Positions 1,369-46,938 of a stretch of 53,551 nt of DNA are shown here, one piece after another. The DNA comes from a virus (Duplodnaviria > Heunggongvirae > Uroviricota > Caudoviricetes), in IMG/VR virus record IMGVR_UViG_2859805564_000008. One strand, written 5' to 3'. Position 1 is the stretch's first letter, and each line of letters opens with the position of its first letter. The notes under the pieces were generated by a model. That model was not told the origin of the DNA. It saw only the letters and a list, made by a program, of their open reading frames with translations, and did not search any database. Both the position numbers and the translations under genes were made by a program.

Positions 1369-1444
1369 GCCGATATAGCTCAGTTGGTAGAGCAGCGCAT
1401 TCGTAATGCGAAGGTCGTAGGTTCGACTCCTATTATCGGCACCA
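1369..1444 (+). tRNA. thrW: tRNA-Thr (anticodon CGU)
   Basis: 76-nt cloverleaf GCCGATATAGCTCAGTTGGTAGAGCAGCGCATTCGTAATGCGAAGGTCGTAGGTTCGACTCCTATTATCGGCACCA with CGT anticodon and CCA end, directly downstream of proA. Confidence 0.9.
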
Positions 1445-1448
1445 TTAA
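1399..1448. repeat. attL core (50-bp direct repeat, 3' part of thrW)
   Basis: ATTCGTAATGCGAAGGTCGTAGGTTCGACTCCTATTATCGGCACCATTAA occurs here and again at ~46889-46938. Confidence 0.85.
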
Positions 1449-1458
1449 AATCAATAAG

Positions 1459-2622
1459 TTACACATCATTAGTACCTTCCTTATTTTTTGACTGGGACAA
1501 ATTTGGGACCGATGGGTTCAGGATCGAGTCTATTTGCCGTGCGTGTTCGGTAAGGTGATTAGGTGCAAGGTGAGCATATCGACGAACCATTTCGATAGAC
1601 TCCCAGCCTCCCATTTCCTGTAACACTGACAACGGGACTCCGGCTTGAACCAGCCAACTTGCCCAGGTGTGTCTCAAGTCGTGAAATCTGAAATCATCAA
1701 TACCAGCCCGTCTCAGCGCCGCTTTCCAGGCTGTGTTTGCGTCATACCGCATCTTCCTTACTGTTGGCGCTTTCGTTCCGTCTGGTTTGGTACAGCTTTC
1801 CTTGTACACAAATACCCAACGGTGATGATTCCCGATTTGTTTTTTCAAAACGCGACATGCAGTATCATTCAGCGCAACGCCAATTGCGCGGTTTGATTTA
1901 CTCTCTTCCGGGTTTATCCATGCCACCCGGCGCTGCATGTCTATTTGTTGCCATTCAAGGTTGATGATGTTCGAGCGTCTTAAGCCTGTTGCCAGTGCAA
2001 ATTCAACAACAGACTTTAATGGCTCCGGACATTCATCAATCAGCCTTTGTGCTTCATGGGGCTCCAGCCAGCGGATCCGTTTATTCTTTGGTTGAGGCAC
2101 TTTAATAATTGGTGCCTTATCCAGCATTTTCCATTCACGCTCTGCGGCTCTTAGTAGGGCCTTTATAAATGAAAGATGCGTAGCCTTCGTTGCAACGGAC
2201 GCTGGTTTTGGCGTGTATTCTGGAACAGGTTTCCCTTTTTTTCTGCATGCTTCTGCCCTGAGTCTCCAGTTTTCCTCATGACGCCGGTTCGTCATTTTCT
2301 GCATTGCTGAATAAATTTTTGATTCAGTAATGTCTCTTAGTTGCATTCCTGCGAAATGTTGAAGCCAGAATCCGATCCGGCTTTTGTCATCGTCCAGTGA
2401 TTTTTTATGTGCTTTCTCTTCAAGCCACCTGACACACGCTTCCTCGAACGTTATATCAGGTATTTCACCAAGTTTGCTGACCCGCCATGCTTCAGCCTTT
2501 AGCTTGTCATGGAGTTCTGTCGCCTGCCTTTTGTCCTTTGTTCCAAGAGACTGTTTAAATCTTTTACCGTTCGGCAATGTGAAACTGGCGTACCATATTT
2601 CACCTCTGCGGAAGAGTGACAT
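1459..2622 (-). CDS. int: tyrosine integrase (P22 Int-like)
   Basis: 387-aa ORF; N-terminus [14 protein letters not shown] and C-terminal RHTWASW...VRRYAHL catalytic region typical of P22-type integrases that target thrW. Confidence 0.9.
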
Positions 2623-2849
2623 TTTCTTTCCTCTGTTATGCCATCACCCGCGCTCACCTGGACAGTATGCAGCGGAGACTGAAGAGCCGCAATGCAGGCT
2701 TGTCGTGTTGTGAGGTAAGGAGATTTATTCTTAGTGGGATCTTTGCGTGTTGCCTGAAGACGCCCTGTGCGTATCCAGTTAATGGCAGTCGGTCTGGATA
2801 TCTTGAGAAAATGACAGGCCTCATCGAGTGTGAGGCTGTATGGCTCCAT
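2499..2849 (-). CDS. xis: excisionase / recombination directionality factor (P22 Xis-like)
   Basis: Internal Met start [33 protein letters not shown] (HTH), immediately upstream of and overlapping int. Confidence 0.75.
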
Positions 2850-3154
2850 TATTTCACCTCTTGCTGTGACATTGTTGAAAAATGGATACCAGCTCGTTGC
2901 TGCCAGACGATCCAACCGAGAGTCATATCCCATGCCATGTATTCGTTATCGCCGTTTTTTGCTCTCCGACGATCTACTAAGTCACCGAAACGCTTTTCCA
3001 TGAATAATTCATAAGCTTCGCGTTCATCTGGTTCTACTTCCAGAGATAGGAGTGCGATTTCATAAGCACGGCGCTCAATATCGTCTCGCACGTCAAGGCT
3101 GCTGATACGCTCTTTAATTTCTTTAATCAGTTCTTTGTCGGTAAAAGTGGTCAT
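2849..3154 (-). CDS. early-left prophage protein (YfdT-like, 101 aa)
   Basis: 101-aa ORF, stop overlaps xis start (TAATG); same size and position as KplE1 YfdT. Confidence 0.5.
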   Translation of the reverse strand: MTTFTDKELIKEIKERISSLDVRDDIERRAYEIALLSLEVEPDEREAYELFMEKRFGDLVDRRRAKNGDNEYMAWDMTLGWIVWQQRAGIHFSTMSQQEVK

Positions 3155-3516
3155 TATGCTCCAGCCTCCGGTGCTTTTGGCATTACTGCCCAGTGAGTGA
3201 TATTGACGTTTTCAAGGTCCCCAACCTGAAATGTCCACTGCCATTCTCCGGTTTCTTTTTGTCCCCAGGTGTACCAGAGAGAACGCCAACCAATTAGCCA
3301 GCCTTCTCCGTTAGCATCGAATAACAAAACACTTTCATTTGCTGGTGGCAGTTCAGTTGACACTGGTATTACTTTGTTTTCCTGTGCTGCACATTTAGCT
3401 TCAAGCGCATCGAATTTACGCACCAGGTATTCAGCATCTGTTTCATTTACTTTCAGATCTCGCGGTACACATCTCCCACGAAGAAACCCTTCCATTTCGA
3501 AAACATTCATGCGCAT
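3154..3516 (-). CDS. early-left prophage protein (YfdS-like, 120 aa)
   Basis: 120-aa Trp-rich ORF, translationally coupled to neighbours. Confidence 0.5.
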   Translation of the reverse strand: MRMNVFEMEGFLRGRCVPRDLKVNETDAEYLVRKFDALEAKCAAQENKVIPVSTELPPANESVLLFDANGEGWLIGWRSLWYTWGQKETGEWQWTFQVGDLENVNITHWAVMPKAPEAGA

Positions 3517-4043
3517 TTGCGTAACTCCGATAACTCGTTAAAGCGTTCCATAAACATCCCGTAGGCATGGCCCGGTGCCAGTGGAATCACGTTGAACATC
3601 TCTGTTGCCGGGATACCTTCCAGTACAGGCCAGAAAGAGCCATCATCAAGCCCGAGATCGCGGCGTTCGGTTGCCAGCATGATGAGATCGGCATATTTCA
3701 CGGGCGTACTCATAACTGGGGGTAACCCGTATTTCTCACGGATTACGGCGTCTATTTTTTCTTCCATTTGTTTATAGTCAGGAAGAAGGCGTTTCAGTGG
3801 TGCGGGAATGTCCTGGCAATACGCTTCTGTTGCATCATGCATTAACGCTTCAAAAGCAAATTCCTGCGGCACCAACTGGCTGCAAAGAACCGCATGTTGG
3901 GCGACGCTGTAGAAGTGCGAAAGATGACCGGCAAAGCGACAGATATTTGAAAGGGAAACCGCGATATCGTTAATATCGATGTCGTCTTTATTTATCCTGT
4001 CATAATAAAAATGCTTCCCGGAAAAAGTTTTAATAAATGACAT
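3507..4043 (-). CDS. HD-domain phosphohydrolase (YfdR-like 5'-deoxynucleotidase)
   Basis: H...HD motifs (AQHAVL...MHDATEAY); internal Met MSFIKTFSGKHFYY gives 178 aa; track ORF extends to 4070. Confidence 0.7.
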   Translation of the reverse strand: MSFIKTFSGKHFYYDRINKDDIDINDIAVSLSNICRFAGHLSHFYSVAQHAVLCSQLVPQEFAFEALMHDATEAYCQDIPAPLKRLLPDYKQMEEKIDAVIREKYGLPPVMSTPVKYADLIMLATERRDLGLDDGSFWPVLEGIPATEMFNVIPLAPGHAYGMFMERFNELSELRKCA

Positions 4044-4170
4044 TTTGTTCTCCACGTATATGCGCTGCACCGCGCTGAATTTTGGTTAAAGAAAACCCTC
4101 GCCATCAGGCGATTATTGAGTTAATTACGTTTCTATAAATGCCCCCGCAGGGGCATTTGCAGTAATGAAA

Positions 4171-4995
4171 TCAGGCGGTGAAAGTACCAATAAAGGTTTC
4201 TACTTTGCTGTCTTTGAATTTTTCAACAAGCAGATTACGAAATTCGTTAGCCATTTCTTCCTGTACTGCTTCCAGCTGAATAATGCGCAGAACCAGTACA
4301 GGGCGATCACCAGTGATAATGCTGAGGCGTAATTTAAACGGACGTTCTTTCAGGCCTTCAAACGGAACGCATTTAAACTCAAATGCTACTGGCATAATGT
4401 CTTTAGTTTTCGCTTCGACAGACTCCATCAGAGAGCGTTTGCCGCTGAAGTCATTGTCTTCAAAATCAGCGGTCTGGTTTGCTTCAATCGTGATTTTACG
4501 GACCGCCGCAGCCGCTTTTGTTGCCTGAATGGCGTCACCATTAGCATCAAAGCCCACAAGGTAGTCGGCCCAGTCTTCAATCCATTCTGCCAGTGACTTC
4601 TGGGAGTTACGCTCGCCGTTAACAGACAACAGGGCAGAGAACGGTGCTGTCTTTTTCAGTTTGAGAGTGGCGGTGTTATCTGCGTGACCTGGTTCATCAA
4701 TAGTACCCAGGTTAAGCACACTGACGGCTCGCATATTATCAGCATCGATAAAGCAGCGGGTGCCTTCATCTGCAAGATCTTTAGAATAACGGGTAAAGTC
4801 ATCGATGCTGGCAGTGGAAAGCGCACCACGGAAACGGAAGCGATTTAAATTAAATTTTTCCAGATCATGAATGCGGAAATTCTCAGGCAATGCCACAGCA
4901 TCGGCACCAATCTTACTGATAATTTCATTAACACCCTGAGCAGAAATAAGGGCATGGATTTGATTAATTTCGGTTGCGTCTAAGTTCTGAGACAT
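4171..4995 (-). CDS. DUF2303-type prophage protein (YfdQ-like, 274 aa)
   Basis: 274-aa ORF in the position and size of KplE1 YfdQ. Confidence 0.6.
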
Positions 4996-5060
4996 AATAA
5001 GTCCTCACTATATAAAGATATTCAGTGATGAGATAAATAATCAGTTAATTAAGAACGATA

Positions 5061-5423
5061 TTAATGACCTGCTGCGCGGAGTTTTCCGTCAGGTTCACCG
5101 GCAAGAGTCAGTAATTGTCCCTGGTCTTCCTGCAGAATAGTCAGGCGACCACCGCGATTGACATACATCGGTGTTTCGGTGGTGTCTTCTTCGGAAATTT
5201 TCCCGCGGTTAGTCGGGCGAACATATGAGAGTTTGTGTTTGATTTTCACACGGTTCTCATCAAATGGTTCGATTTCCAGGTTGAGCGAGACCTTACCTTT
5301 GGTTTTCGTGTTCATCACACCGGAAGCGACTTCACTGAGAACTGCGCCGATTTTGGTTTCAAATACGCCGCCGTCCAGCTCCCCGATAAATGCCTGCACA
5401 TCAGTACTGCGTTCGCTAGCCAT
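5061..5423 (-). CDS. early-left prophage protein (YfdP-like, 120 aa)
   Basis: Track ORF 5061-5609; likely start at MASERSTDV preceded by GAGGAG; the upstream extension looks non-coding. Confidence 0.5.
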   Translation of the reverse strand: MASERSTDVQAFIGELDGGVFETKIGAVLSEVASGVMNTKTKGKVSLNLEIEPFDENRVKIKHKLSYVRPTNRGKISEEDTTETPMYVNRGGRLTILQEDQGQLLTLAGEPDGKLRAAGH

Positions 5424-6039
5424 TTTGCTGCTCCTCATCATATCGACCCTGCAAGGTCGGTTAGTTTCTCCACAAAACAGAGAAGAACACCTGCGGTGGC
5501 AGCCGCCCGGATGGATTGGGTTATGAGCCCGTCGTCCGGTGATGCTCTTCTCTGTTTTGTAAAAAGAGCGGTACCAGCCGGAAGCAAGTGTACAAACTGG
5601 TACCGCCAAAGCAGTGGCTGTTGTGGTGACCGGTGCTGATCTCCGGCTTGCGGTTATTTCAGACTCTCACGGGCGTTTAATTGCCCCGCCGAACAGCTCT
5701 TTTCCGCAATAGCTGCAATGTCTTTCGCGCATCAGTCTGCGCATTCACCACAACGCTGAGAGCACTTAGCCAGTTACGGCACCACACTTTGTCGCGGTTC
5801 CATAAATGCCCTCATCGTTGCACCCTGGTCTCTTCCCAGGCGTCAAACCGAATCGCCACGCTGGTTAGGCGTCTTATCAGCATCATCATTGACTTGCACA
5901 TTCCGGCTACCTGGTTTGTTTGCTCGAGCAAGGAGTGGATTGTCCCCTTTAACGTCACCAGACCGCTAACGACGCATGTGCCATACGCCGTGTTACAACC
6001 AAATTTTGTTTTAATCTTGCCTGTGTTATGTTTCTTTTA

Positions 6040-6072
6040 GATACATTATGTATCTCATGGGTACATTGTCAA
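6040..6072 (-). promoter_or_regulatory. candidate pL-like leftward promoter with overlapping 15-bp dyad operator
   Basis: Minus-strand TTGACA, ~17-18 bp spacer, TAATGT; dyad GATACAT-T-ATGTATC overlaps the -10 region. Confidence 0.35.
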
Positions 6073-6074
6073 GT

Positions 6075-6099
6075 ATAAAAAAACCTGCCGAAGCAGGTT
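6075..6099 (-). terminator. intrinsic terminator downstream of the repressor gene
   Basis: Hairpin AACCTGC-CGAA-GCAGGTT followed by a U7 run on the minus strand. Confidence 0.6.
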
Positions 6100-6111
6100 C
6101 ATAAATATTGA

Positions 6112-6786
6112 TTAGGCCTTTATTGTGTATCTTCTTGGTTTTCCCGAGAAAATCACTGTACCAATTATAGAGCAATTACCGTTAATCTTAATGTAAGGCT
6201 CAGGCCAGTTTGGGTTTAATGCTTTGAGATAACGCTGTGTTCCATCTTCTATCAATCGCTTGAAGGTGGTTTCGCCTGTATCGTGCATCAATGCAATAAC
6301 GTCGTCACCGTGGCAGGCAGGGACTTCGGGATCAACAAAAATCATGTCTCCAGGGCGGTACTCATCAATCATTGAATCACCAATCACCCGCAAGATATAA
6401 GTCATTTCGCCACAGGGTACAGGGCAGGGATACGTTTCTGCTGTGCTCAAATCAACCTCAGAATAGCCAACTTCTTTCCATGCTCCGGCCTGTACCCATG
6501 ATATGACAGGGACTAACGTTATTTGTTTGTTAGTGATTGAAACATCAGGTTTTTTTGTGATGTTCGTTGTCTGGTGTTCTTGATCAAGCCATCCGACAGG
6601 CAGGTCGAAACATTTTTCGATGTGCCGTGCCATGCTGTCACCGATATTTTTAGTAGCGCCATCCCCCATAAACCTGCTGGTTTGGGTTGGCTCGCGATCA
6701 ATCATGGTGGCAAAGGATGAATTTCCGCCAACACCATCTCTCAGTTTTCTGGCGTTAGACCGCCGGATGTCATGGATTGTTTTCAT
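6112..6786 (-). CDS. cI: CI-type prophage repressor (HTH plus S24 LexA-like peptidase domain)
   Basis: 224 aa; C-terminal GDSM...PGD...KR autocleavage-domain pattern; divergent from cro. Confidence 0.8.
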   Translation of the reverse strand: MKTIHDIRRSNARKLRDGVGGNSSFATMIDREPTQTSRFMGDGATKNIGDSMARHIEKCFDLPVGWLDQEHQTTNITKKPDVSITNKQITLVPVISWVQAGAWKEVGYSEVDLSTAETYPCPVPCGEMTYILRVIGDSMIDEYRPGDMIFVDPEVPACHGDDVIALMHDTGETTFKRLIEDGTQRYLKALNPNWPEPYIKINGNCSIIGTVIFSGKPRRYTIKA

Positions 6787-6803
6787 AACGAAATTAAAAC
6801 CTT

Positions 6804-6820
6804 TGTACCGATAAGGTACA
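6804..6820. promoter_or_regulatory. operator-like dyad in the cI-cro intergenic region
   Basis: TGTACC-GATAA-GGTACA inverted repeat between the divergent repressor and cro genes. Confidence 0.45.
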
Positions 6821-6876
6821 AGTATCTTGAAGGTTCATTTCAATCATGTAATATGTATACCGGAGGTACATATTGT

Positions 6877-7077
6877 ATGAAAGCGTATTGGGACTCTTTA
6901 ACCAAAGAACAGCAGGGCGAGTTGGCCGGAAAAGTTGGCTCAACACCTGGCTACTTACGGCTGGTTTTCAATGGTTATAAAAAAGCCAGTTTTGTGCTGG
7001 CTAAAAAACTTGAGCAATGCACGTCAGGTGCAATTACGAAATCTGACTTAAGACCGGATATCTATCCGAAAGATTAA
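6877..7077 (+). CDS. cro: Cro-like HTH regulator
   Basis: 66-aa ORF MKAYWDSLTKEQQGELAGKVG... with GGAGG 9 nt upstream; track ORF begins earlier at 6772. Confidence 0.7.
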   Translation: MKAYWDSLTKEQQGELAGKVGSTPGYLRLVFNGYKKASFVLAKKLEQCTSGAITKSDLRPDIYPKD

Positions 7078-7108
7078 CAGAACACCTTCAATTTTTAACC
7101 ACAGAACG

Positions 7109-7672
7109 ATGAGGCTAACCGTGGGTAAGTATCACTGGAAAGTAGAAAAACAGCCTGAGTGGTACGTGAAAGCTGTCAGAAAAACTATCGCAGCGTTGCC
7201 GGGTGGTTACGCTGAAGCAGCTGACTGGCTGGATGTAACAGAGAACGCATTATTTAACCGCCTTCGTGCCTATGGCGATCAGATTTTCCCGCTGGGATGG
7301 GCAATGGTTTTACAGCGCGCGGCTGGCACTCACTACATTGCGGATGCTGTCGCACAGTCTGCTGGTGGGGTGTTCGTATCGCTTCCTGAAATTGAGGAAG
7401 TAGAGAACGCCGATATAAACCAGCGCCTGCTGGAAGTCATTGAACAGATCGGCAGTTATTCAAAACAGATTCGTTCAGCAATTGAAGACGGTGTAGTGGA
7501 ACCGAATGAGAAGACAGCAATTAACGACGAGCTGTACCTCTCAATTTCGAAGCTGCAGGAGCATGCAGCACTGGTCTACAAAATTTTTTGCATTTCAGAA
7601 AGTAATGACGCCCGCGAGTGTGCAGCTCCGGGCGCCGTGGCGTGTCGTGACTGTGGAGAAACTAACGCATGA
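7109..7672 (+). CDS. CII/YdaT-like regulatory protein (putative)
   Basis: 187-aa ORF immediately after cro, the position of CII-type regulators. Confidence 0.4.
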
Positions 7673-8007
7673 ACAGTTTAACAACACACTACCGTCGCTC
7701 GCAACTGATTGCGCTTCCTGTACCGGGTGGAAAAGCGAAGGTGGAGTATTGCTATGCAGTAAATGTACCAGGTGACAGGGAAATTGTAACCCACAGCTTT
7801 GCAGAGTGGGCTGTGGGTGATTTCAACCGGCAGAAGGAGACAGTCCTTTGCGACAAGTTAACCGCTGGTTCAAAGATCACTACGGAGTGCCCGTCAGAGT
7901 CATTCGTTGGGAGCCGGAAACACAACGGGTTATCTACCTCCGCGAAGGCTATGAGCATGAGTGCTTCAGCCCGCTCGAACAGTTTCGTCGTAAATTCAGG
8001 GAAGTAG
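7669..8007 (+). CDS. hypothetical protein, apparently frameshifted
   Basis: N-terminal part looks protein-like; the -1 frame from ~7821 to ~8027 continues with a plausible sequence (...[44 protein letters not shown]...). Confidence 0.3.
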
Positions 8008-8016
8008 AGGTCGGTC

Positions 8017-8958
8017 ATGAGCACTAAATTAACCGGCTATGTATGGGATGGTTGCGCTGCATCAGGCATGAAATTATCCAGCGTGGCAATTATGGCCCGC
8101 CTGGCTGATTTCAGTAATGACGAAGGTGTGTGCTGGCCATCAATTGAAACCATTGCCCGTCAGATTGGCGCGGGGATGAGTACCGTCAGAACGGCTATCG
8201 CACGGCTGGAAGCAGAAGGCTGGTTAACGCGTAAGGCGCGTCGCCAGGGTAACCGCAATGCGTCGAATGTTTATCAGCTTAACGTTGCGAAGCTTCAGGC
8301 AGCGGCATTTTCTCAACTGTCAGATTCTGACCCGTCAAAATCTGACGCATCAAAATCTGACACGTCAAAATTTGATGCGTCGAAATCTGGCAAAAAAGCG
8401 GGTTTTCACCCGTCAGAATCTGGCGGGGATCCGTCAGTAAAATCAAAACATGATCCGTCAGATAAAAAACCTTCTCGTCCGGACGCTTCGCAACCGGACA
8501 CGCAGACGGCTGAACAGGATTTTTTAACTCGCCATCCTGATGCGGTTGTATTCAGCCCTAAAAAGCGCCAGTGGGGAACGCAGGATGATTTGACCTGCGC
8601 ACAGTGGCTCTGGAAAAAAATCATTGCCCTGTACGAGCAGGCCGCCGAATGTGACGGCGAGGTGGTTCGTCCCAAAGAACCGAACTGGACAGCATGGGCA
8701 AACGAAATTCGCCTGATGTGTGTGCAGGATGGTCGTACTCACAAACAAATCTGCGAGATGTACAGCCGCGTCAGCCGCGAGCCGTTCTGGTGCCGTAACG
8801 TGCTCAGCCCGTCGAAGTTGCGGGAAAAATGGGATGAGCTTTCCCTGCGCTTATCGCCGTCCGTCAGCACGCACACAGAAAAACGTGAAGACCCGTACTT
8901 CAAAGCCAGTTACGACAACGTGGACTACAGCCAGATCCCGGCAGGATTCAGGGGGTGA
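8017..8958 (+). CDS. replication initiation protein (O-like, winged-helix N-terminus) containing the iteron array
   Basis: 313 aa; N-terminal HTH; in-gene iterons encode the SKSDASKSDTSKFDASKS repeat. Confidence 0.7.
   Translation: MSTKLTGYVWDGCAASGMKLSSVAIMARLADFSNDEGVCWPSIETIARQIGAGMSTVRTAIARLEAEGWLTRKARRQGNRNASNVYQLNVAKLQAAAFSQLSDSDPSKSDASKSDTSKFDASKSGKKAGFHPSESGGDPSVKSKHDPSDKKPSRPDASQPDTQTAEQDFLTRHPDAVVFSPKKRQWGTQDDLTCAQWLWKKIIALYEQAAECDGEVVRPKEPNWTAWANEIRLMCVQDGRTHKQICEMYSRVSREPFWCRNVLSPSKLREKWDELSLRLSPSVSTHTEKREDPYFKASYDNVDYSQIPAGFRG
8320..8470. repeat. iteron array (candidate ori) inside the replication gene
   Basis: At least 6 direct repeats of CCGTCA(A/G)AATCTGAC-like units. Confidence 0.65.
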
Positions 8959-9449
8959 TCATGAGTCTTTTGAATGACGTTCAGAAATTCATTGAAGCCC
9001 ATCCGGGCTGTACTTCCGGAGACATTGCGGATGCTTTTGCAGGTTACTCACGGCAGCGCGTTCTGCAGTCAGCAAGCAAGTTACGTCAGAGTGGGCGTGT
9101 GGCTCACCGTTGTGAAGGAGATACACACAGACATTTCCCGCGCCTGACTGAGAGAGCGCAGGATCCGGAACCACAACCAGTTCGTGAAACCAGACCTGTG
9201 CGCAATTTCTATGTCGGCACTAACGACCCGCGGGTGATTTTGTGCCTGACCCGCCAGGCGGAAGAACTGGAGTCCAGGGGCTTATACCGTCGAGCTGCAA
9301 CGGTGTGGATGGAGGCATTCCGTGAAAGCCACTCCCAGCCAGAACGAAACAATTTTCTGGCGCGTCGTGAGCAGTGTTTACGGAAAAGCAGCAAGCGCGC
9401 TGTATCGGGTGATGAGTGGTATCTGTCAGGGAATTACGTGGGGGCGTAA
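8955..9449 (+). CDS. PerC-like transcriptional regulator domain protein (putative)
   Basis: 164 aa; C-terminal GLYRRAATVWMEAF...RREQCLRK resembles PerC family; overlaps the neighbouring stop/start codons. Confidence 0.4.
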   Translation: MIMSLLNDVQKFIEAHPGCTSGDIADAFAGYSRQRVLQSASKLRQSGRVAHRCEGDTHRHFPRLTERAQDPEPQPVRETRPVRNFYVGTNDPRVILCLTRQAEELESRGLYRRAATVWMEAFRESHSQPERNNFLARREQCLRKSSKRAVSGDEWYLSGNYVGA

Positions 9450-10161: not shown

Positions 10162-10180
10162 TTAAGAGGAGAAACGAAGT

Positions 10181-10978: not shown

Positions 10979-10979
10979 G

Positions 10980-36476: not shown

Positions 36477-36499
36477 TTGCAGAAAAGCGAGAGGTAATT

Positions 36500-37099: not shown

Positions 37100-37125
37100 T
37101 TAGCCAGGTAACACAGTGTTATGAC

Positions 37126-37152: not shown

Positions 37153-37157
37153 GTGGG

Positions 37158-40100
37158 GTGAATATGGCAGTAAAAATTTCAGGTGTACTGAAAGACGGCA
37201 CAGGAAAACCGGTACAGAACTGCACAATCCAGCTGAAAGCAAAACGTAACAGTACCACGGTGGTGGTGAACACGCTGGCATCTGAAAATCCGGATGAAGC
37301 CGGGCGTTACAGTATGGACGTTGAGTACGGTCAGTACAGCGTTATTCTGTTGGTGGAAGGATTCCCGCCGTCACATGCCGGGACCATCACAGTGTATGAA
37401 GATTCCCGACCCGGTACGCTGAATGATTTTCTCGGTGCCATGACGGAGGATGATGCCCGTCCGGAGGCACTGCGCCGTTTTGAGCTGATGGTGGAAGAGG
37501 TGGCGCGTAACGCGTCCGTGGTGGCACAGAACACGGCAGCCGCGAAGAAGTCAGCCAGTGATGCCAGCACATCAGCCCGTGAGGCGGCAACCCATGCGAC
37601 TGATGCTGCAGGCTCAGCACGCGCAGCCAGCACGTCAGCCGGACAGGCCGCGTCGTCGGCTCAGTCAGCGACTTCCAGCGCAGGAACGGCATCAACAAAG
37701 GCCACTGAAGCATCAAAAAGTGCTGCCGCTGCAGAGTCCTCAAAAAGCGCGGCAGCTACCAGTGCCAGTGCCGCGAAAACGTCAGAAACGAATGCGGCAG
37801 CGTCACAACAATCAGCAGCCACTTCTGCATCCACCGCGACCACGAAAGCGTCAGAAGCTGCCACCTCAGCCCGGGATGCGGCGGCTTCAAAAGAGGCGGC
37901 AAAATCATCAGAAACGAACGCATCCTCGAGCGCCAGTAGCGCAGCTTCCTCGGCAACGGCGGCAGCAAATTCTGCGAAGGCGGCCAAAACGTCCGAGACG
38001 AACGCCAGGTCTTCTGAAACGGCAGCGGGACAGAGTGCCTCAGCTGCGGCAGGCTCAAAAACAGCGGCTGCATCATCTGCCAGTGCCGCGTCAACAAGTG
38101 CCGGGCAGGCCTCAGCCAGTGCCACCGCTGCCGGAAAGTCGGCAGAAAGCGCCGCATCATCCGCTTCAACAGCCACAACGAAGGCTGGCGAAGCCACTGA
38201 GCAGGCCAGCGCAGCAGCGAGGTCAGCTTCCGCAGCGAAGACATCCGAAACGAACGCGAAAGCGTCGGAAACCCGTGCAGAATCCTCAAAAACGGCTGCT
38301 GCATCGTCCGCCAGTTCGGCGGCGTCATCGGCATCATCTGCGTCTGCTTCAAAAGATGAGGCGAGCAGACAGGCATCAGCAGCGAAAGGCAGCGCCACGA
38401 CGGCATCCACGAAGGCGACAGAGGCAGCTGGCAGTGCGACGGCGGCAGCTCAGAGCAAAAGTACGGCGGAATCCGCGGCAACGCGCGCTGAGACAGCGGC
38501 AAAACGGGCAGAGGATATTGCATCCGCCGTGGCGCTTGAGGATGCGAGCACGACGAAAAAGGGGATAGTACAGCTCAGCAGTGCGACCAACAGCACTTCC
38601 GAGTCACTGGCGGCAACGCCAAAAGCCGTTAAGGCCGCGTATGACCTGGCTAACGGGAAATACACCGCACAGGATGCAACGACAGCACAGAAAGGGATAA
38701 TCCAGCTAAGCAGCGCGACCAACAGCACGTCTGAAACGCTGGCGGCAACGCCAAAGGCAGTAAAATCAGCCTATGACAATGCAGAGAAACGTCTGCAGAA
38801 AGACCAGAACGGCGCTGATATACCCGATAAGGGACGCTTCCTGAACAACATTAACGCGGTCAGTAAAACAGACTTTGCTGATAAGCGTGGTATGCGTTAT
38901 GTGCGGGTTAACGCTCCTGCAGGTGCAACATCTGGAAAATATTACCCTGTTGTTGTTATGCGTTCTGCTGGCTCAGTAAGCGAACTGGCATCAAGGGTCA
39001 TTATCACCACGGCAACGCGAACCGCAGGCGATCCGATGAATAACTGCGAGTTTAACGGATTTGTTATGCCTGGTGGCTGGACTGACAGGGGGCGTTATGC
39101 TTATGGAATGTTCTGGCAATATCAAAACAATGAACGAGCCATCCACTCAATAATGATGAGTAATAAGGGCGATGATTTGCGCTCTGTGTTCTATGTTGAT
39201 GGCGCTGCTTTCCCTGTTTTTGCGTTTATCGAAGATGGCCTGTCAATATCCGCACCTGGTGCTGATCTCGTTGTTAATGATACGACCTATAAGTTTGGGG
39301 CAACAAATCCGGCGACTGAATGTATTGCGGCGGACGTTATCCTTGATTTTAAGAGTGGGCGTGGTTTTTATGAGTCTCATTCGTTAATCGTTAACGATAA
39401 CTTGTCGTGCAAAAAACTTTTTGCCACAGACGAAATTGTAGCGCGTGGTGGTAATCAGATTCGAATGATAGGTGGGGAGTATGGTGCATTATGGCGTAAT
39501 GATGGCGCTAAAACTTACCTGCTGCTTACCAATCAAGGTGATGTTTATGGTGGCTGGAATACATTAAGACCGTTTGCTATTGATAACGCAACCGGCGAAC
39601 TGGTTATTGGAACCAAACTGTCCGCAAGTCTGAACGGTAATGCATTAACAGCAACAAAGCTGCAAACGCCAAGACTGGTTTCTGGTGTTGAGTTTGATGG
39701 TTCCAAAGATATTACTTTAACCGCCGCGCATGTGGCTGCTTTTGCCAGAAGGGCAACGGATACATATGCCGATGCGGATGGTGGCGTTCCCTGGAATGCC
39801 GAATCAGGCGCTTATAATGTCACCCGCTCTGGCGACAGCTATATTCTGGTTAACTTCTATACCGGAGTCGGAAGTTGCCGGACATTGCAGATGAAGGCGC
39901 ATTACAGAAATGGTGGTCTGTTCTACCGTTCTTCAAGAGACGGTTATGGTTTTGAAGAAGACTGGGCAGAAGTTTATACCTCGAAAAATCTTCCACCAGA
40001 AAGCTACCCAGTAGGCGCACCAATCCCGTGGCCATCAGATACCGTTCCGTCTGGCTATGCCCTGATGCAGGGGCAGGCTTTTGACAAATCTGCTTACCCG

Positions 40101-40709
40101 AAACTCGCAGCCGCTTATCCGTCAGGCGTGATCCCTGATATGCGTGGCTGGACGATTAAGGGCAAACCTGCCAGTGGTCGTGCCGTATTGTCTCAGGAAC
40201 AGGACGGCATTAAATCGCACACCCACAGCGCCAGCGCATCCAGTACGGATTTGGGGACGAAAACCACATCGTCGTTTGATTACGGCACTAAATCCACGAA
40301 TAACACCGGGGCGCATACGCACAGTCTGAGTGGCTCTACGGGGTCTGCCGGTGCTCATACTCATGGTAATGGTATTCGTTGGCCAGGAGGCGGCGGTTCT
40401 GCGTTAGCATTTTATGATGGCGGTGGGTTCACTTATGTCAAGGATTCACAGTATCAAGTAAGCCCGGGGACTTCTTCCAGTAGATCGTATTATCAACGTA
40501 TTCAGACACAGTCAGCAGGTGCTCATACCCACTCGCTGTCTGGTACTGCAGCAAGTTCTGGCGCACATGCACATACTGTAGGTATTGGTGCGCATACGCA
40601 CTCGGTTGCGATTGGCTCACATGGACACACCATCACCGTTAACGCTGCTGGTAACGCGGAAAACACCGTCAAAAACATCGCATTTAACTATATTGTGAGG
40701 CTTGCATAA
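37158..40709 (+). CDS. side tail fiber protein (Stf-like)
   Basis: 1183 aa; Stf-like N-terminus, ~330-aa Ala/Ser/Thr-rich repeat region, C-terminal His-containing repeats (GAHTHSLSG). Confidence 0.8.
37540..38560. repeat. GC-rich low-complexity coding repeat within the tail fiber gene
   Basis: Repeated ...AAKTSETNA.../...SASSAAS... units; produces long spurious ORFs in the other frames and on the opposite strand. Confidence 0.8.
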
Positions 40710-41293
40710 TGGCATTCAGAATGAGTGAACAAGCACGGACCATAAAAATTTATAATCTGCTGGCCGGAACTAATGAATTTATTGGTGAAGGTGATGCATA
40801 TATTCCGCCTCATACAGGTCTGCCAGCAAACAGTACCGATATTGCACCACCAGATATTCCTGCTGGCTTTGTGGCTGTTTTCAACAGTGATGAGGCATCG
40901 TGGCATCTCGTTGAAGACCATCGGGGTAAAACGGTTTATGACGTAGCGTCAGGGGACGAGTTATTTATTTCTGAACTCGGTCCGTTACCGGAAAATGTTA
41001 CCTGGTTATCGCCGGAAGGGGAGTTTCAGAAGTGGAACGGCACAGCCTGGGTGAAAGATGCAGAAGCAGAAAAACTGTTCCGGATCCGGGAGGCGGAAGA
41101 AACAAAAAACAGCCTGATGCAGGTAGCCAGCGAGCATATTGCGCCGCTTCAGGATGCTGCAGATCTGGAAATTGCAACGGAGGAAGAAACCTCATTGCTG
41201 GAAGCCTGGAAAAAGTATCGGGTGTTGCTGAACCGTGTTGATACATCAACTGCACCGGATATTGAGTGGCCAGAAGAACCAGACACCGTGTAA
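40709..41293 (+). CDS. tail fiber assembly protein (Tfa-like)
   Basis: 194 aa, overlaps the stf stop; N-terminus [17 protein letters not shown] typical of Tfa chaperones. Confidence 0.8.
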
Positions 41294-41305: not shown

Positions 41306-41342
41306 AACCGCAGACACGACGTATGCATGACGTGCTGCGGTT
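41306..41342 (-). terminator. terminator between convergent tfa and GIY-YIG genes
   Basis: Hairpin AACCGCAG...CTGCGGTT; on the minus strand it is followed by a U-rich tract. Confidence 0.55.
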
Positions 41343-41362
41343 TATGCTTATCACTTAAAGAC

Positions 41363-42542: not shown

Positions 42543-43976
42543 ATGTCTGAATTTGAAGTGTTGGCACAGCATCTGCTGAAGGAAGCCGAGGCGGAAGAAA
42601 AGTTGCGACAGGAAAATGATAAAAAGCTTATCGAGAAAGTGCTGGAAATCTATGATCAGAAGTATGTGGCTGAATTACTGAGAAAAGTCGGAAAAAATGA
42701 GTGGAGCCGTGAAACCATTAACCGCTGGATTAATGGCAAGTGTTTACCAAAATCGTTGACTTCAGTAGAAGAGTCTCTTCTGCGTAAGATGCTACCAGAA
42801 CCACCTGCAAACCATCCGGAATATGCTTTCCGCTTCATTGACTTATTTGCTGGAATTGGAGGGATACGGAAAGGTTTTGAGGCCATTGGAGGCCAGTGTG
42901 TTTTTACCAGTGAATGGAATAAAGATGCTGTGCGTACATACAAGGCCAACTGGTTTAACGATGAACAGGTGCATAAATTCAATCTCGATATTCGGGAAGT
43001 CACGCTGAGTGATAAAACCGATGTATTGGAAACGGATGCTTATGCATATATTGATGAGCATGTGCCGGATCATGATGTGCTTCTTGCGGGGTTCCCGTGC
43101 CAGCCATTTAGCCTTGCTGGTGTTAGTAAGAAAAACTCACTTGGTCGTGCGCATGGTTTTGAATGTGAAGCACAAGGAACACTTTTTTTTGACGTGGCAC
43201 GTATTATACGAGCAAAAAAACCGGCAATTTTTGTGCTGGAAAATGTCAAAAATCTGAAGAGCCATGATAAGGGTAAAACTTTCAAAGTCATTATGGAGAC
43301 CCTTGACGAGCTGGGCTACGAAGTTGCCGATGCTGCAGAAATGGGAAAAAACGATCCAAAGATTATCGATGGGAAGCATTTTTTGCCTCAGCATCGTGAA
43401 CGCATTGTTCTGGTCGGATTTAGACGAGATCTGAATATTCACAAGGGGTTTACCTTGCGTGATATCAGTCGTTTTTATCCGGAACACCGCCCATCATTTG
43501 GTGAATTGCTGGAGCCTGTAGTCGACAGTAAATATATACTTACGCCAAAACTATGGGAGTACCTTTATAACTACGCCAAAAAGCATGCAGCCAAGGGGAA
43601 TGGTTTTGGCTTTGGGTTGGTCAATCCTGAGAATAAGGAAAGCATTGCACGCACACTTTCTGCCAGATATCACAAAGACGGATCAGAAATTCTTATTGAT
43701 CGTGGTTGGGATATGGCAACGGGAGAGGCTGACTTTATGAATGAGAGTAATCAGGCTCGTCGACCACGCAGGCTGACTCCCCGAGAGTGCGCACGCCTTA
43801 TGGGATTTGAAAAACCTGGAGGGAAACCATTCCGTATTCCGGTTTCAGATACTCAGTCATATCGGCAGTTCGGTAACTCAGTTGTGGTGCCAGTATTTGA
43901 AGCTGTTGCCAGACTTCTGGAACCCTATATCCTCAAAGCTGTTTCTGCTGATGCTGGTAAGACTGGGCAGCCTTGA
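42543..43976 (+). CDS. ecoRIIM: C5-cytosine DNA methyltransferase, Dcm/M.EcoRII type (CCWGG)
   Basis: [12 protein letters not shown] (motif I), GFPCQPFS (motif IV), ENV, QFGNSV; close to M.EcoRII/Dcm throughout; GGAGG RBS before MSEFEV; track ORF starts at 42501. Confidence 0.95.
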
Positions 43977-44010
43977 GAACATCTCCCGGCCTTTTAAGCC
44001 GGGAGTCAGC

Positions 44011-45225
44011 CTATGATAGTTCAGCGTAAAGCTCTATCAGCTCAGTAATGAATGCTCCGAGCGTTATTAATTCTTCTCTAACTGCTTCTGGGTATTTTTT
44101 ATGTAAAGTTGATGGTACAACGAGTCTGACACCCGCATCTTTCATTTCTCGGTATTGTGCTGAAGAAACACCTTCTTGCAGTGTAAATAAATGTACCTGA
44201 TGGATTTTATCTGCTTCATTCAGTATCTGACGCCAGCGATCTTTGCAGGTGGTCTTTACTGCCAGCATACGTAAGTTTTCTACAGGAAATTCAACGTTAT
44301 GATATGCCTCTGCTGAAGGAAACAGGAAATCTGGTTTTTTATTACCTTCAGTTACTGCCTGAGTGGAGAAATGCCGTAGTCCGTGCTCGATAAAAAGCTT
44401 CTCTAGGTGAAGTTCAAGTGATTTGCCTGCCCTTGATTTACGTCGATTACTGACAGAGTTGGCTAATGCAATAAACTCATCTACAGAATCGAATCCTTTC
44501 TTAATAATATCAAGAACATGTAATTCCTCGACGAGTAGAAAAATATCATACTCGACACGCCGACGGTCAATCAGTTGCTCATCTGGATCCTTGGAGTTTT
44601 TAGCATAATGGCCAGCAGCATATTGAATAATTTCGTTTCCAGAAGGAAAACGCTTCTTCCAGTCTTCAGGAATAACATATTTATGATTTACTGGAGTTTG
44701 CTGAAGAGACAATCCGCCCAAAATTTGTCCGGCAGGGCCGGAAATTAGGGTTCCAGGTATGATTTCGCCAATAGCAGACTCGATGATATCCTCTTCATCG
44801 GGATTGACGCAGACCCATATATCTACCTCGGAACAGTCAGTGTTCTGTTCGTTTAACCTGAAAGCAAGAATTGTGAGGGCTCCTGTATTTTCAGGGTTCT
44901 GTAATGGACTTCCTCTCCCCCAGCGCGTAATTCTTTTTTCGTTTCGGGTCTTACCAAAATAACGGTTGTTGTAATAAATTGCGCGTGCTTGGGTATCAGG
45001 GCAATCATGGGATGATACATGCGCAGTAAGGAAGACTGAAGGGTTCAGTTCGCGAGTATGATTGATAGATGGAAAAAGCTTTTCAACGATATTTGAGGGG
45101 ATATAAAGTCCGACCTGATGGCCACCTGTTGCGCCTGTGTCGTTTGCAGAAAGGCGTTTGATGTAGATAAAGTAATTCCCGCTTGCGATATCAAGCAGCC
45201 AGTTATGAAAAACCGACATATACAT
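44011..45225 (-). CDS. ecoRIIR: type IIE restriction endonuclease, EcoRII type
   Basis: 404-aa ORF (MYMSVFHNWLLD...) highly similar to my recollection of R.EcoRII, convergent with the methylase gene; start may be the internal Met at 45219. Confidence 0.9.
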   Translation of the reverse strand: MYMSVFHNWLLDIASGNYFIYIKRLSANDTGATGGHQVGLYIPSNIVEKLFPSINHTRELNPSVFLTAHVSSHDCPDTQARAIYYNNRYFGKTRNEKRITRWGRGSPLQNPENTGALTILAFRLNEQNTDCSEVDIWVCVNPDEEDIIESAIGEIIPGTLISGPAGQILGGLSLQQTPVNHKYVIPEDWKKRFPSGNEIIQYAAGHYAKNSKDPDEQLIDRRRVEYDIFLLVEELHVLDIIKKGFDSVDEFIALANSVSNRRKSRAGKSLELHLEKLFIEHGLRHFSTQAVTEGNKKPDFLFPSAEAYHNVEFPVENLRMLAVKTTCKDRWRQILNEADKIHQVHLFTLQEGVSSAQYREMKDAGVRLVVPSTLHKKYPEAVREELITLGAFITELIELYAELS

Positions 45226-45290
45226 CCCTTTGTTAACATACAGTCAGGGTTAACATTTTTCCATAGTTATAGATAAGCGGCTAGGAACTT

Positions 45291-45326
45291 AAGGGAAAAA
45301 CAAAAAGCCCGCATAAGCGGGCTTTT
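45291..45326 (-). terminator. minus-strand intrinsic terminator upstream of the endonuclease gene
   Basis: AAAGCCCGC-ATAA-GCGGGCTTT hairpin followed on the minus strand by UUUUUGUUUUU. Confidence 0.6.
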
Positions 45327-45453
45327 GTGTCACTCGAGAGCCGCGGCTCCTTTGCGTATCCTTTTTTGTCTCCTCACCGTCTGGTCGGTGTCCTGCTGAG
45401 ACTGCTAACTTCCTGTTTTTGTTGGTGTTGTCCTTACACCGTCCAATCATGAT

Positions 45454-45478
45454 TGGTGGAGCTGGCGGGAGTTGAAAC
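45454..45478 (-). other. tmRNA (ssrA) 3'-end-like fragment
   Basis: Minus strand reads CGGTTTCAACTCCCGCCAGCTCCACCA, one mismatch to the E. coli ssrA 3' terminus as I recall it; no upstream tmRNA body. Confidence 0.45.
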
Positions 45479-45818
45479 CGTAGCCACGTCGTATGCAAGA
45501 ACGTGCTACGACTGGCTGGTGAACTTCCGATAGTGCGAGTATTGAATGATTTCCAACTGTTATCGATTTTGCGTATTTTTTGCATGAGAGGATTTTTACC
45601 TCCTCCCACCGATCCTCCATGGCTTTACGCCAGTGTCTCTAGGACTGCTATGTGCCAAAAGCAGAACTTGCTTACATTGTGCTATGTTAATTTGTTGGGA
45701 GCAGGTCACAAAGTCCAGCCAGGACGAAAATAAATAATTGCCATACATTTAGTGTTGATTATTTCGGGATTGTTCATCTATTCTGATTGTATCAGCGAGC
45801 AGGCCGGAGTCACTCTTC

Positions 45819-46043
45819 GTGGATCATCCCATACTTCAGAAAACAATCGTTCTCTTTATTCTTGCCCTATGGGTAATTGATCCATTCAGGACAAAGAGAA
45901 GAAAGCATACTGAATCCACCATTGAAGAAGCCGATGCCAGAGAACGTCATAAATGGCGATATCTCAGATGGGGAGTACGAACAATACAAATTGCAGCGAC
46001 AGTATATATGTTTGCTATGCTGATTCAGTTTTTACTGAAGTAG
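45819..46043 (+). CDS. small hypothetical membrane protein
   Basis: 74-aa ORF with two hydrophobic segments flanking a basic loop. Confidence 0.25.
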   Translation: MDHPILQKTIVLFILALWVIDPFRTKRRKHTESTIEEADARERHKWRYLRWGVRTIQIAATVYMFAMLIQFLLK

Positions 46044-46888
46044 ACGGCTCAGGCAGGTACGACCGGACGGAATTGGCAGCCAATTCAGCGGAGGCCGGAC
46101 GGGGTTAAACGTCCCCTCTGTGCCAGTGACCTGCTCCCCGTTGATTCACACGGAAGGCTGTTAGAAATGTGCAATTTTTGCTCACAGCAGACTGTAAGAG
46201 TTGATTGTGTGTTGCACTGTGAGATCAAATCAAAACCAATATATTCAGGCATCTTCCCACAGCGCCCCCATTCAACAGGCAATTGCTCCTTATCAAATCC
46301 CTCAAACCAGTAAACACTACTTTTTGCCCAACAATAGGCACTTCTCCCCAACCCTAATGAAACAATGCGCGACTCCAGTCCGGCTTGAGACGACCATGCC
46401 GTTTAAGGCGCACACCATTACAAGCAGTTGCTCATATTGAGGGAAAGTTAATAAAGAAACTTAACGGCATTTCCTCTTTTGCGCACGTTTCAATTGCCTT
46501 GATATCCAGTCTTGGTTACGTTTGCGAATTTTTTGTTTCATTGGCTACTGTTCTGATTCGACTCACTTATTAATCAATGATCTTACTGTATTCCAACGCC
46601 ATGCTTTGTACAGGAATGTCCGCTTTTCGCTCATAACAGACATTAACTACAGTTATGGTAGAAGGTATGCATGCTGGGTGGGGAAAGTATGAAGGAAAAG
46701 AAGACTGCTGCGCCGTTTGTCGTCACATTTATCTTCATTGGCTATGCAAGTCGTAATACAAGGTGGGACAAAACTGAGACACATAAGGCCTCGCAATGAC
46801 TTGCAAGGCTTTACATGTTTTGATGTGGTGGGACGTGTGAGCGCAGTGTTGATGGGGTAATGCTTTGAATTAGAAGCGGATTCTTATA

Positions 46889-46938
46889 ATTCGTAATGCG
46901 AAGGTCGTAGGTTCGACTCCTATTATCGGCACCATTAA
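46889..46938. repeat. attR core (50-bp direct repeat of the thrW 3' half)
   Basis: Identical to 1399-1448; not preceded by the tRNA 5' half. Confidence 0.85.

Follow-up and report, generated by a model that had tools for sequence, protein, structure and literature searches.

The window analysed here, meaning the whole 53,551 nt of IMG/VR record IMGVR_UViG_2859805564_000008, is E. coli or Shigella DNA, and the element inserted in its thrW gene is confirmed as a precisely bounded lambdoid prophage of 45.5 kb. This prophage is very probably complete, and probably inducible, having been assembled by recombination from known modules and carrying defence genes as cargo. Between the two copies of the attachment site the lambdoid gene order is complete, running from int-xis through the early left genes, cI/cro/cII, O, Q, lysis, terminase, portal, capsid, and tail genes to the fibres and att, which is the canonical order of a lambdoid temperate phage. 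The features are listed in Table 1. Every protein of the window was scored by tblastn against lambda, P22, SfV, SfIV, mEp460, 569R4, phi458, CPS-53, and e14, and occurrence in E. coli was counted in 5426 complete genomes.

Table 1. Features of the thrW prophage, with positions in the window, strand, and the basis on which each was identified.
Feature	Position	Strand	Basis
thrW tRNA-Thr(CGT), integration target	1369–1444	+	ARAGORN; Rfam tRNA
attL core, exact 50-bp repeat	1399–1448		repeat finder; empty-site alignment
Tyrosine integrase, P22/SfIV type	1459–2622	-	Pfam Phage_integrase 3.5e-48
Excisionase (HTH_17)	2499–2849	-	Pfam
Early-left operon: yfdT, yfdS (DUF551), yfdR (HD phosphatase), yfdQ (DUF2303), yfdP	2849–5423	-	tblastn
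Structured leader, ~185 nt, directly upstream of yfdP	5424–5608	-	RNA folding; conservation
cI terminator (6081–6100), then PL-like promoter TTGACA-16-CATAAT (6045–6072)	6045–6100	-	consensus scan
CI repressor, ymfK type, Peptidase_S24 self-cleavage domain	6112–6786	-	Pfam
cro (ymfT), cII-like (ymfL), ymfM	6877–8007	+	Pfam Phage_CP76; PHROG CII-like
O-like initiator, sole replication gene, 313 aa	8017–8958	+	PHROG; tblastn
nin-region analogue: yfdN (PerC), LexA DNA-binding-domain protein, RusA, KilA-N, DUF968/HNHc	8955–11975	+	Pfam
Late antiterminator Q, PF06530 type	11991–12356	+	Pfam 1.1e-51
NYN (LabA/MARF1-like) nuclease gene, 287 aa, antisense	12369–13232	-	Pfam NYN; AF2/Foldseek
Intrinsic terminator in late leader, tR'-like	13486–13510	+	direct sequence reading; SfV annotated terminator aligns
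Small winged-helix-like ORF and beta-class N6/N4 DNA methyltransferase, M.EcoGI/GII type	13633–15029	+	Pfam N6_N4_Mtase 1e-42
Lysis cassette: S holin, R endolysin, Rz, embedded Rz1 (16129–16311)	15106–16370	+	Pfam; tblastn
bor/iss serum-survival lipoprotein gene	16402–16695	-	Pfam Lambda_Bor 1e-30; 92% lambda Bor
Imperfect ~287-bp tandem duplication (16988–17571) and truncated HNH gene (17508–17657)	16988–17657	+	repeats D1, D2
Packaging/head: DUF1441 small terminase, large terminase, W-like, portal, ClpP-protease/major-capsid fusion, DUF2190, FII-like	18027–24996	+	tblastn; RefSeq names
Lambda-like tail: Z, U, V, G, T, H, M, L, K, I, J, lom, side tail fibre (stf), tfa	25008–41293	+	tblastn
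Late-operon terminator hairpin copy 1, cassette left border	41308–41345	+	alignment
PD-T4-3/CMoRE, GIY-YIG type IV restriction enzyme, 257 aa	41363–42136	-	PADLOC; PDB 9u75
EcoRII restriction-modification: M 42543–43976 (+), R 44011–45225 (-)	42543–45225		PDB; Pfam
27-nt ssrA 3' end (45454–45480) abutting hairpin copy 2 (45478–45515), cassette right border	45454–45515		alignment
Non-coding b-region remnant, lambda b fragments and P22/SfV-type attP arm (46764–46888)	45516–46888		nucleotide alignment
attR core, exact 50-bp repeat	46889–46938		repeat finder; empty-site alignment

Boundaries and virion genes of the thrW prophage

The prophage is bounded by a direct repeat (1399–1457 and 46889–46947), the first 50 bp of which are identical in the two copies, with a mismatch at base 51. 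Exact copies of this length 45.5 kb apart are not explicable by chance, and an earlier note on this DNA had already taken them as the limits of the prophage. The target is the one tRNA found by ARAGORN. To the left of the prophage is proA, and in the empty site of E. coli strain 8479 proB, proA, thrW, and the sequence that forms the right flank of the window are all contiguous. When attL and attR are aligned with this empty attB, the inserted DNA is seen to be exactly what separates the repeats, in agreement with the earlier note. With both cores the element is 45,540 bp, which makes the phage genome 45,490 bp.

At the right end of the prophage, inspection of the ORFs in the b-region remnant revealed none that is convincing. 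The attP arm within this region is 93% identical to SfV and 80% identical to P22. The right flank past attR (46939–53551) is rich in insertion sequences (IS), related to IS600 and IS1, and the best coverage of this flank by any complete E. coli genome is 56%, which would suggest that the host background is Shigella-like or otherwise IS-laden. A scan of the complete window with Rfam gave no matches at gathering thresholds other than the tRNA and IS009. The IS009 match (224.7 bits, 41052–41250) is wholly within tfa and probably reflects conserved tfa sequence, not a separate RNA gene.

In the head module, from the small terminase to the FII-like gene, the proteins are 99–100% identical to those of mEp460, while identity to lambda is 25% for the large terminase (terL) and 22% for the portal; lambda E, C, D, and Nu1 have no match in the prophage. 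The tail proteins from Z through Lom are 95–100% identical to mEp460 (J 83%) and 25–93% identical to lambda. The side tail fibre and Tfa match mEp460 in part only, Tfa being 95% identical to lambda. From the small terminase to Lom each protein aligns over 98–100% of its length with that of mEp460, a functional phage, and there are no interruptions in the genes for Int, Xis, CI, O, Q, S, R, Rz, and Rz1. The cosN sequence of lambda was not found in the prophage, even at two mismatches. The mEp460 record begins at a position that corresponds to approximately 18002, which is apparently a gene start and not cos.

Early genes, replication, and the LLS functional type

The integrase is 99.7% identical to that of SfIV and 89.7% identical to that of P22 over all 387 aa, and the excisionase is identical to that of SfIV (98–100% for SfV and SfIV together, 87% for P22). 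An orthologue of P22 Int is here combined with an att core in the 3' end of thrW, as in integration of the P22/SfV type, and insertion into thrW would have used this P22/SfIV-type tyrosine integrase. The early-left proteins, YfdT to YfdP, are 96–99% identical to CPS-53 (KplE1) and 99–100% identical to SfV. The PL-like promoter, which matches the consensus at 11 of 12 positions, has its sequence in common with SfV. The repressor is 100% identical to YmfK of e14 and 99% identical to SfV CI, and the immunity region as a whole (cI, cro, cII-like, ymfM, DUF4222) is 90–100% identical to e14 (ymfK, ymfT, ymfL, ymfM). The ORF at 7669–8007 is 98% identical to e14 YmfM, which is annotated as "cell division inhibitor" in K-12; in the near-identical prophage of E. 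coli A0 34/86, RefSeq calls only the overlapping DUF4222 ORF here and not ymfM.

The O-like protein matches phrog_391 over its full length (4e-134) and also phrog_2514, "DnaD-like helicase loader" (2e-28). It is 98% identical to its counterparts in SfIV and 569R4 and to the truncated YfdO of CPS-53, and identity to SfV, lambda O, and mEp460 O is 31%, 29%, and 31%, respectively. Against PDB sequences only weak MarR-type winged-helix matches were obtained. Proteins of the nin-region analogue are 86–99% identical to SfV and mEp460. The dam-like gene present in SfV, mEp460, and 569R4 is missing at 9449, the junction of yfdN and the LexA DNA-binding-domain gene, a feature in common with SfIV. For Q, identity is 80% to SfIV and 54% to 569R4, with no tblastn match in lambda, P22, SfV, or mEp460, and its gene ends at 12356 in a hairpin.

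No tblastn match was found in the window at E ≤ 0.01 for lambda N, P22 gp24, lambda P, the Edwardsiella lambda-P homologue, or P22 gp12, nor at the same threshold for exo, bet, gam, erf, abc1/2, RecT, or SSB. No DnaB-like helicase or DnaC was matched in the window, SfV orf33 has no counterpart there, and kil, cIII, rexAB, NinB, NinG, Q, and S of lambda are not matched in the prophage. Between PL (6045) and the start of yfdP (5423) the longest ORFs on the minus strand are 48 and 49 aa, the sole longer one being an upstream extension of yfdP; there is no other minus-strand ORF of at least 50 aa and no N- or gp24-like protein, the mark of N-type antitermination, encoded just downstream of PL. The replication module is likewise reduced to O, with its phrog_391 match and no match to lambda P, the Edwardsiella P, or P22 gp12.

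The Chi sequence (GCTGGTGG) occurs at 14 sites, where 2.13 would be expected and the maximum in 100 shuffles is 6. All of these sites are within 3341–22183, and 12 of them are on the + strand. Absence of a Rec module, abundant Chi, and early-left genes of the yfbR/yfdQ/yfdP type are described for the LLS functional type of lambdoid phages (PMC12315714), named for a phage in which dependence on RecBCD has been shown (PMC12315714). An O homologue alone is present in 34 of 314 lambdoid phages, the replication of which is described as "not yet understood" (PMC12315714; Zheng, Casjens et al. 2025). The prophage in the window has no recombinase, exonuclease, or RecBCD inhibitor, has over-represented and strand-biased Chi, a single O-like gene without helicase or loader, no N, and yfbR/yfdQ/yfdP-type genes, and on these properties it can be assigned to the already described LLS type, a membership by shared properties and not by close sequence identity, phage LLS itself not being in the comparison. 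In replication, the O homologue would have to recruit host DnaB/DnaC, and host RecBCD would supply recombination by way of the many Chi sites, as in the published class.

Antitermination of the kind found in HK022, through put sites, was tried and is not claimed here, as the HK022 model is silent in the window. This covariance model, which combines putL and putR and is thus built on two sequences that distant relatives could escape, regains its own HK022 sites at 92 and 89 bits and has no match at E ≤ 10 in the window, SfV, SfIV, 569R4, e14, or CPS-53. A single match of 9.6 bits (E 4.6) in the tail-gene region of mEp460 is taken as chance. The early-right genes are tightly packed, with a gap of 43 nt between cro and cII, and no strong intrinsic terminator was found on the minus strand from PL to int. 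Together these make N-independent early transcription plausible; such transcription would probably need no protein antiterminator.

The leader upstream of yfdP is predicted to fold into an 11-bp stem-loop followed, after one unpaired base, by a hairpin of approximately 100 nt with approximately 25 consecutive pairs and by a small hairpin before the ribosome-binding site (RBS). The minimum free energy is -103.8 kcal/mol (z = -4.97), and none of 200 shuffles folds as well. In 80 viral contigs that encode YfdP, the protein being 100% identical in all 80 recovered loci, there are 55 distinct variants of the upstream sequence. The 185-nt block is nearly invariant over these variants, at 96% mean column identity, and the DNA just upstream of the block belongs to at least four unrelated families. 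So abrupt a mosaic boundary points to a cis element under selection. Because the columns are 96% identical, there is too little variation for covariation to have statistical power. The leader has no Rfam match at gathering thresholds, and a permissive scan of the PL region returned sub-threshold chance matches only. Candidate roles for the leader are RNase III processing, translational control of the early-left genes, or cis-acting antitermination of a type other than that of HK022. The prophage would be a natural example of the LLS class, for which O-only replication and N-less early antitermination are acknowledged open questions, and the leader offers a defined element for tests in this class.

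Genes between Q and lysis, at the head of the late operon, and beside att

The NYN cassette between Q and the lysis genes (12357–13475) is 39.9% GC, against 50.7% for the prophage, and the gene has promoter-like sites of its own at 13342–13313 and 13397–13368. The upstream region at 13300–13420 contains several TTGACA/TGTCAA motifs and a perfect, operator-like 11-bp inverted repeat (ATATAGTGTCA ... TGACACTATAT). The protein matches Pfam NYN at 1.4e-9 and belongs to a family with more than 3000 members across the Gammaproteobacteria, and D9, D164, D170, D189, and D191 are invariant in 30 homologues. A search of PDB sequences gave no match, so that a fold search was needed; the AlphaFold (AF2) model (pLDDT 88.7) has as its top Foldseek matches 2qip (LabA-like) and 5yaa (the NYN RNase domain of MARF1), with probability 1.00. 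The fold and the acidic active-site residues place the protein in the NYN/LabA superfamily. There is no significant match in PADLOC v2, where HEC-09 (4.6e-4) and NYN (5.1e-4) each align over approximately 47 residues. A literature search for an NYN defence system found no relevant description, "NYN" elsewhere referring to codon libraries.

The NYN gene is present in 27 of the 5426 E. coli genomes and is not found in SfV, SfIV, mEp460, or 569R4. An Edwardsiella prophage has an orthologue of 86% identity in the same antisense place, between a lambda-type Q and the holin. The Q of that prophage is from a different family to the one in the window, lambda P is present, and the two cassettes are 78% identical in nucleotide sequence over the NYN gene and approximately 240 bp upstream. 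In 16 of 78 related viral loci, NYN copies of approximately 85–100% identity are in or beside the Q-to-lysis slot, 15 of them flanked by Q and lysis or late genes and 1 showing early genes only. A further group of 57% identity occupies the Q-to-lysis slot in sense orientation. At 37 of the 78 loci (L126, L133, L142, and 34 others among L114–L167), NYN is directly downstream of a CI-type repressor (HTH and S24) and co-oriented with it, in 34 cases within 400 bp. In the three of these contigs with lambda immunity (L126, L133, L142; CI 98–99% identical to lambda), NYN is exactly in the place of rexA-rexB, lambda identity ending at 37219, just past cI, and restarting at 35826, at the end of rexB.

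This position downstream of cI, and in the rexAB slot, is the strongest argument that NYN is an exclusion gene expressed in the lysogen. It is quite possible, if still short of probable, that NYN is a new single-gene exclusion or defence system encoded by prophages, its family moving between two lysogen-expressed slots of lambdoid phages. The gene in the window would then be expressed in the lysogen from its own promoter-like sites, between Q and the late promoter, and the product would most plausibly be an RNase that degrades the RNA of the infecting phage, or host RNA in abortive infection, upon superinfection. A regulatory RNase, processing phage or host transcripts in the lysis-lysogeny decision or in late development, is possible but rather less likely. 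NYN enzymes typically process RNA, the top folds being LabA-like and MARF1, the antisense position of the gene, with Q on one side and the late leader on the other, could allow it to act on late transcripts, and PADLOC gives NYN no significant match. However, a gene this rare, and missing from four related phages, would be dispensable for the phage, its low-GC cassette with its own promoter-like sites is common to phages with different Q families, and the place downstream of cI that it takes elsewhere, that of rexAB, is the place of lysogen-expressed exclusion genes. As a candidate exclusion gene that occupies the rexAB slot in other phages, NYN would be cheap to include in experimental defence screens.

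The cassette between the tail fibre and att encodes two restriction systems. The first protein matches PD-T4-3 in PADLOC (7.6e-140, residues 1–256) and PDB 9u75 (5e-171, residues 1–257), and is thus a full-length orthologue of PD-T4-3/CMoRE. CMoRE is a type IV enzyme specific for DNA containing 5-hydroxymethylcytosine or its glucosylated form (5hmC/5ghmC) (PMC12923530), and restriction of T-even phages has been shown for PD-T4-3/CMoRE orthologues (PMC12923530; bioRxiv 10.1101/2024.12.20.629700). In the second, R.EcoRII matches PDB 1na6 (3e-243) over residues 1–403, including both the effector and the catalytic domain, and is beside a Dcm-type C5 methylase, M.EcoRII, with Pfam DNA_methylase and DNA_meth_N domains and a match to PDB 3me5 (4e-209). 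Both systems would be expressed in the lysogen. EcoRII would cut unmodified CCWGG, and CMoRE would cut the hydroxymethyl- or glucosyl-hydroxymethyl-cytosine DNA of phages that evade EcoRII. The two are likely to be compatible, since the 5-methylcytosine (5mC) made by M.EcoRII is not a reported substrate of CMoRE. In one 4-kb cassette, two restriction activities would in this way complement each other, one against unmodified and the other against hypermodified cytosine DNA.

The hairpin of the late-operon terminator is present on both sides of this 4.1-kb cassette, whereas mEp460 and lambda have one copy with the same flanks. In an O103:H2 strain, an unrelated prophage with a Mu-like tail and pinE has an identical cassette at its end, where the cassette abuts an intact ssrA and is preceded by the hairpin (locus L011, features at 3461–3497 and 7612–7638). 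The complete cassette is present in 245 of the 5426 genomes, and PD-T4-3 is also found alone. The pair of hairpins and the O103:H2 copy indicate that the cassette shuttles between prophage ends by recombination at the terminator, carrying with it a piece of the ssrA attachment site. A longer ssrA relic at 45299–45476 was considered and rejected, as only the 27 nt of the ssrA 3' end align; the rest of that segment is sequence found downstream of ssrA in many strains, and a permissive Rfam scan of 45100–47000 gave sub-threshold chance matches only.

Type II restriction-modification systems are established agents of post-segregational killing, and the PD-T4-3/EcoRII block might instead be an independent mobile island in which EcoRII is mainly a selfish addiction module that stabilizes its carrier. 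The GC content of the block (43%), the two flanking hairpin copies of approximately 35 bp with the ssrA end, the same block beside intact ssrA in the O103:H2 prophage, and the occurrence of PD-T4-3 without the restriction-modification genes in other strains would all fit such an island. It is nonetheless unlikely. The block lacks an integrase and a transposase as well as terminal inverted repeats, and in both contexts it is inside a prophage at the tail-fibre/att end. The repeat on either side of it is a late terminator that belongs to the phage itself and that mEp460 and lambda have in one copy, so that homologous or illegitimate exchange between prophages fits better than transposition.

Between the NYN cassette and the terminase genes are the late leader, methylase, lysis, and bor genes. 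The small ORF at 13633 is 100% identical to SfV, and the methylase is 99% identical to both SfV and mEp460. The methylase is 350 aa, has the motifs TDPPYF and FFMGSGST (DPPY, then FxGxG), and is 81% identical to the methylase of phage 1720a-02, described as very similar to the non-specific adenine methylase M.EcoGII (PMC5778455). Its conservation across SfV, mEp460, cdtI, and Stx phages marks it as phage equipment and not as a strain-specific moron. A broad anti-restriction role, expressed late, is likely; the M.EcoGI/GII-like enzyme would methylate adenine in progeny DNA before release. In the lysis cassette, R and Rz are 95% and 98% identical to lambda and the holin is 95–98% identical to SfV and SfIV. 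There is no match for the holin to lambda S, nor for the holin and R in mEp460, and Rz is 59% identical to that of mEp460.

The bor/iss gene encodes a conventional lipoprotein of lysogenic conversion. Past it, near 17640, is the junction of SfV-type and mEp460-type modules, marked by the tandem duplication and the HNH fragment. The copies of the duplication are 88–89% identical, each with a minus-strand terminator-like hairpin and an HNH gene start. A 54-aa hydrophobic minus-strand ORF with a strong AAGGAGG RBS (16876–17040) is just downstream of the first copy, and there is no Rfam or Pfam support for it as a small toxin. Only the N-terminal 50 of the 116 aa of SfV Orf53 align with the HNH fragment, which has no Pfam domain, is not a complete packaging-associated HNH protein of the Orf53 type, and is a pseudogene in RefSeq. 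The HNH ORF at 17467–17868 was rejected as a moron, being a truncated remnant. The fragment, which mEp460 and 569R4 also carry, is a recombination scar at the module junction.

The carriage of defence cargo by prophages in slots such as these is a known pattern (PMC9122126). The earlier note had proposed that all three classical moron slots are occupied by genes that target nucleic acids. This holds for the slot between tail fibre and att, with PD-T4-3 and EcoRII, and for that between Q and the late promoter, with NYN, the cargo regions being 40–43% GC (cassette 43%) against the 50.7% of the prophage. It does not hold for the head of the late operon, where bor/iss and the dead HNH gene are found.

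Completeness of the prophage and comparison with known phages

The prophage appears to be intact from its genes. It could be argued that it is a defective cryptic prophage, unable to excise, replicate, or package, which has been kept for its defence cargo like CPS-53 and e14, both of which are decayed remnants of the same phage type. A pseudogene and a tandem duplication are beside the packaging genes, there is only one replication gene, and no cos is recognizable. This is, however, very unlikely, as comparison with mEp460 and SfIV, which are functional phages, revealed no truncation of any essential gene, and the att cores are identical over 50 bp. The HNH fragment is also present in mEp460 and 569R4, which were themselves deposited as genomes of phages. 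A layout with O alone is normal in the class (PMC12315714), and the 45.5 kb size is in line with relatives of 42–47 kb.

A complete phage with lysogen-expressed cargo is therefore preferred, although several observations weigh against it. The cos site was not located, and the terminase genes are directly preceded by the 287-bp duplication and the HNH pseudogene. For NYN and the cassette, activity in the lysogen is deduced only from orientation, promoter-like sites, and terminators. An Edwardsiella phage with another Q family has the region upstream of NYN in common with the window, which would be unexpected for a Q-specific site, and the late promoter pR' is placed only tentatively, just upstream of the terminator at 13486. 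The non-specific activity proposed for the methylase comes by way of an 81%-identical homologue, itself only named "very similar" to M.EcoGII.

The earlier note had also described a mosaic of modules of different ancestry, and protein comparison with lambda, P22, the Sf phages, and CPS-53/KplE1 bears this out. Integration is of the P22 type, as proposed (Int 90%, Xis 87%), with SfIV closer still; the early genes from yfdT to yfdP are indeed KplE1-like, and the tail is lambda-like, at 25–93% identity. The lysis region is lambda-like in R (95%), Rz (98%), and bor (92%), but the holin is of the SfV type. The capsid module is distinct in being unrelated to the lambda head, and is the already well-known mEp460/cdtI module with the ClpP-protease/capsid fusion (99–100%). 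That N and a helicase or loader are missing, as had been noticed, agrees with the tblastn searches and is a published property of the LLS-type class (PMC12315714). The prophage is a new recombinant of known modules in a described class, with mostly known defence cargo, and would be most economically described as an SfIV-type left arm and an mEp460/cdtI-type virion module, with lambda-type R-Rz-bor between them.

Among complete E. coli genomes, the left half (1399–24000) is 99.8% identical, over 100% coverage, to the thrW prophage of strain A0 34/86, and at least 80% of it is found in one place in 13 of the 5426. The right half is 89–93% covered at approximately 97–99% identity in A0 34/86 (89%, 97%) and a few others. 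No deposited phage reaches 80% coverage of the left or the right half, the closest being vB_EcoS-569R4 (67%, 60%), PhiR40_1/PhiR55_1, SfIV/SfV (left half only, 51–53%), and mEp460/Ayreon/cdtI (right half, 57–66%).

The whole left arm from int to Q is of the SfIV/SfV type, at 92–100% amino-acid identity. Shared with these phages are integration in thrW, Int (99.7% SfIV), Xis (100% SfIV), the early-left genes, e14-type immunity, the O-like gene (SfIV), PerC, the LexA DNA-binding-domain protein, RusA, DUF968, Q (80% SfIV), the holin, and, with SfV, the methylase and orf47. SfIV and SfV differ in their Mu-like contractile tails, HK97-like heads, and intact HNH gene next to cos, and have O-antigen genes (gtrABC) by att, where PD-T4-3 and EcoRII are found here; R, Rz, and bor are of the lambda type in the window. 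In the slot between Q and S, NYN is present here, nothing in SfV, and IS1 with orf48/49 in SfIV, a region that has already been called a moron (PMC3851460).

With mEp460, cdtI, 569R4, and PhiR40_1 the prophage shares the small terminase to lom (95–100%, J 83%), yfdP-yfdS, the nin analogue, and the late methylase, but mEp460 has its own integrase, att site, immunity, O (31%), Q, and lysis genes, as well as a dam gene, and has dinI where the window has the defence cassette. Apart from Int, Xis, the thrW attB, and the attP arm (80%), there is nothing more in common with P22, gp24, gp18, gp12, erf, abc, and the P22 virion genes being absent from the window. The overall gene order, b-region fragments, R, Rz, Bor, Tfa (95%), and in the tail L (93%), K (87%), J (84%), and I (78%) are shared with lambda, in contrast to N, P, Red/Gam, cIII, kil, rexAB, NinB/G, Q, S, E, C, D, Nu1, and cosN, which are lacking here. 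The prophage confirms the free reassortment of left arms of the SfV/SfIV type, virion modules of the mEp460 type, and lysis genes of the lambda type. The new leads are the NYN cassette that replaces rexAB and the near-invariant leader of yfdP.

From yfdN to yfdT the prophage is 96–99% identical to CPS-53 (KplE1), and in ymfK, ymfT, ymfL, ymfM, and oweE it is 90–100% identical to e14. Both of these prophages have decayed to fragments, at argW and icd. The window has the intact arrangement behind both halves and thus provides a reference for these two relics of the K-12 chromosome.

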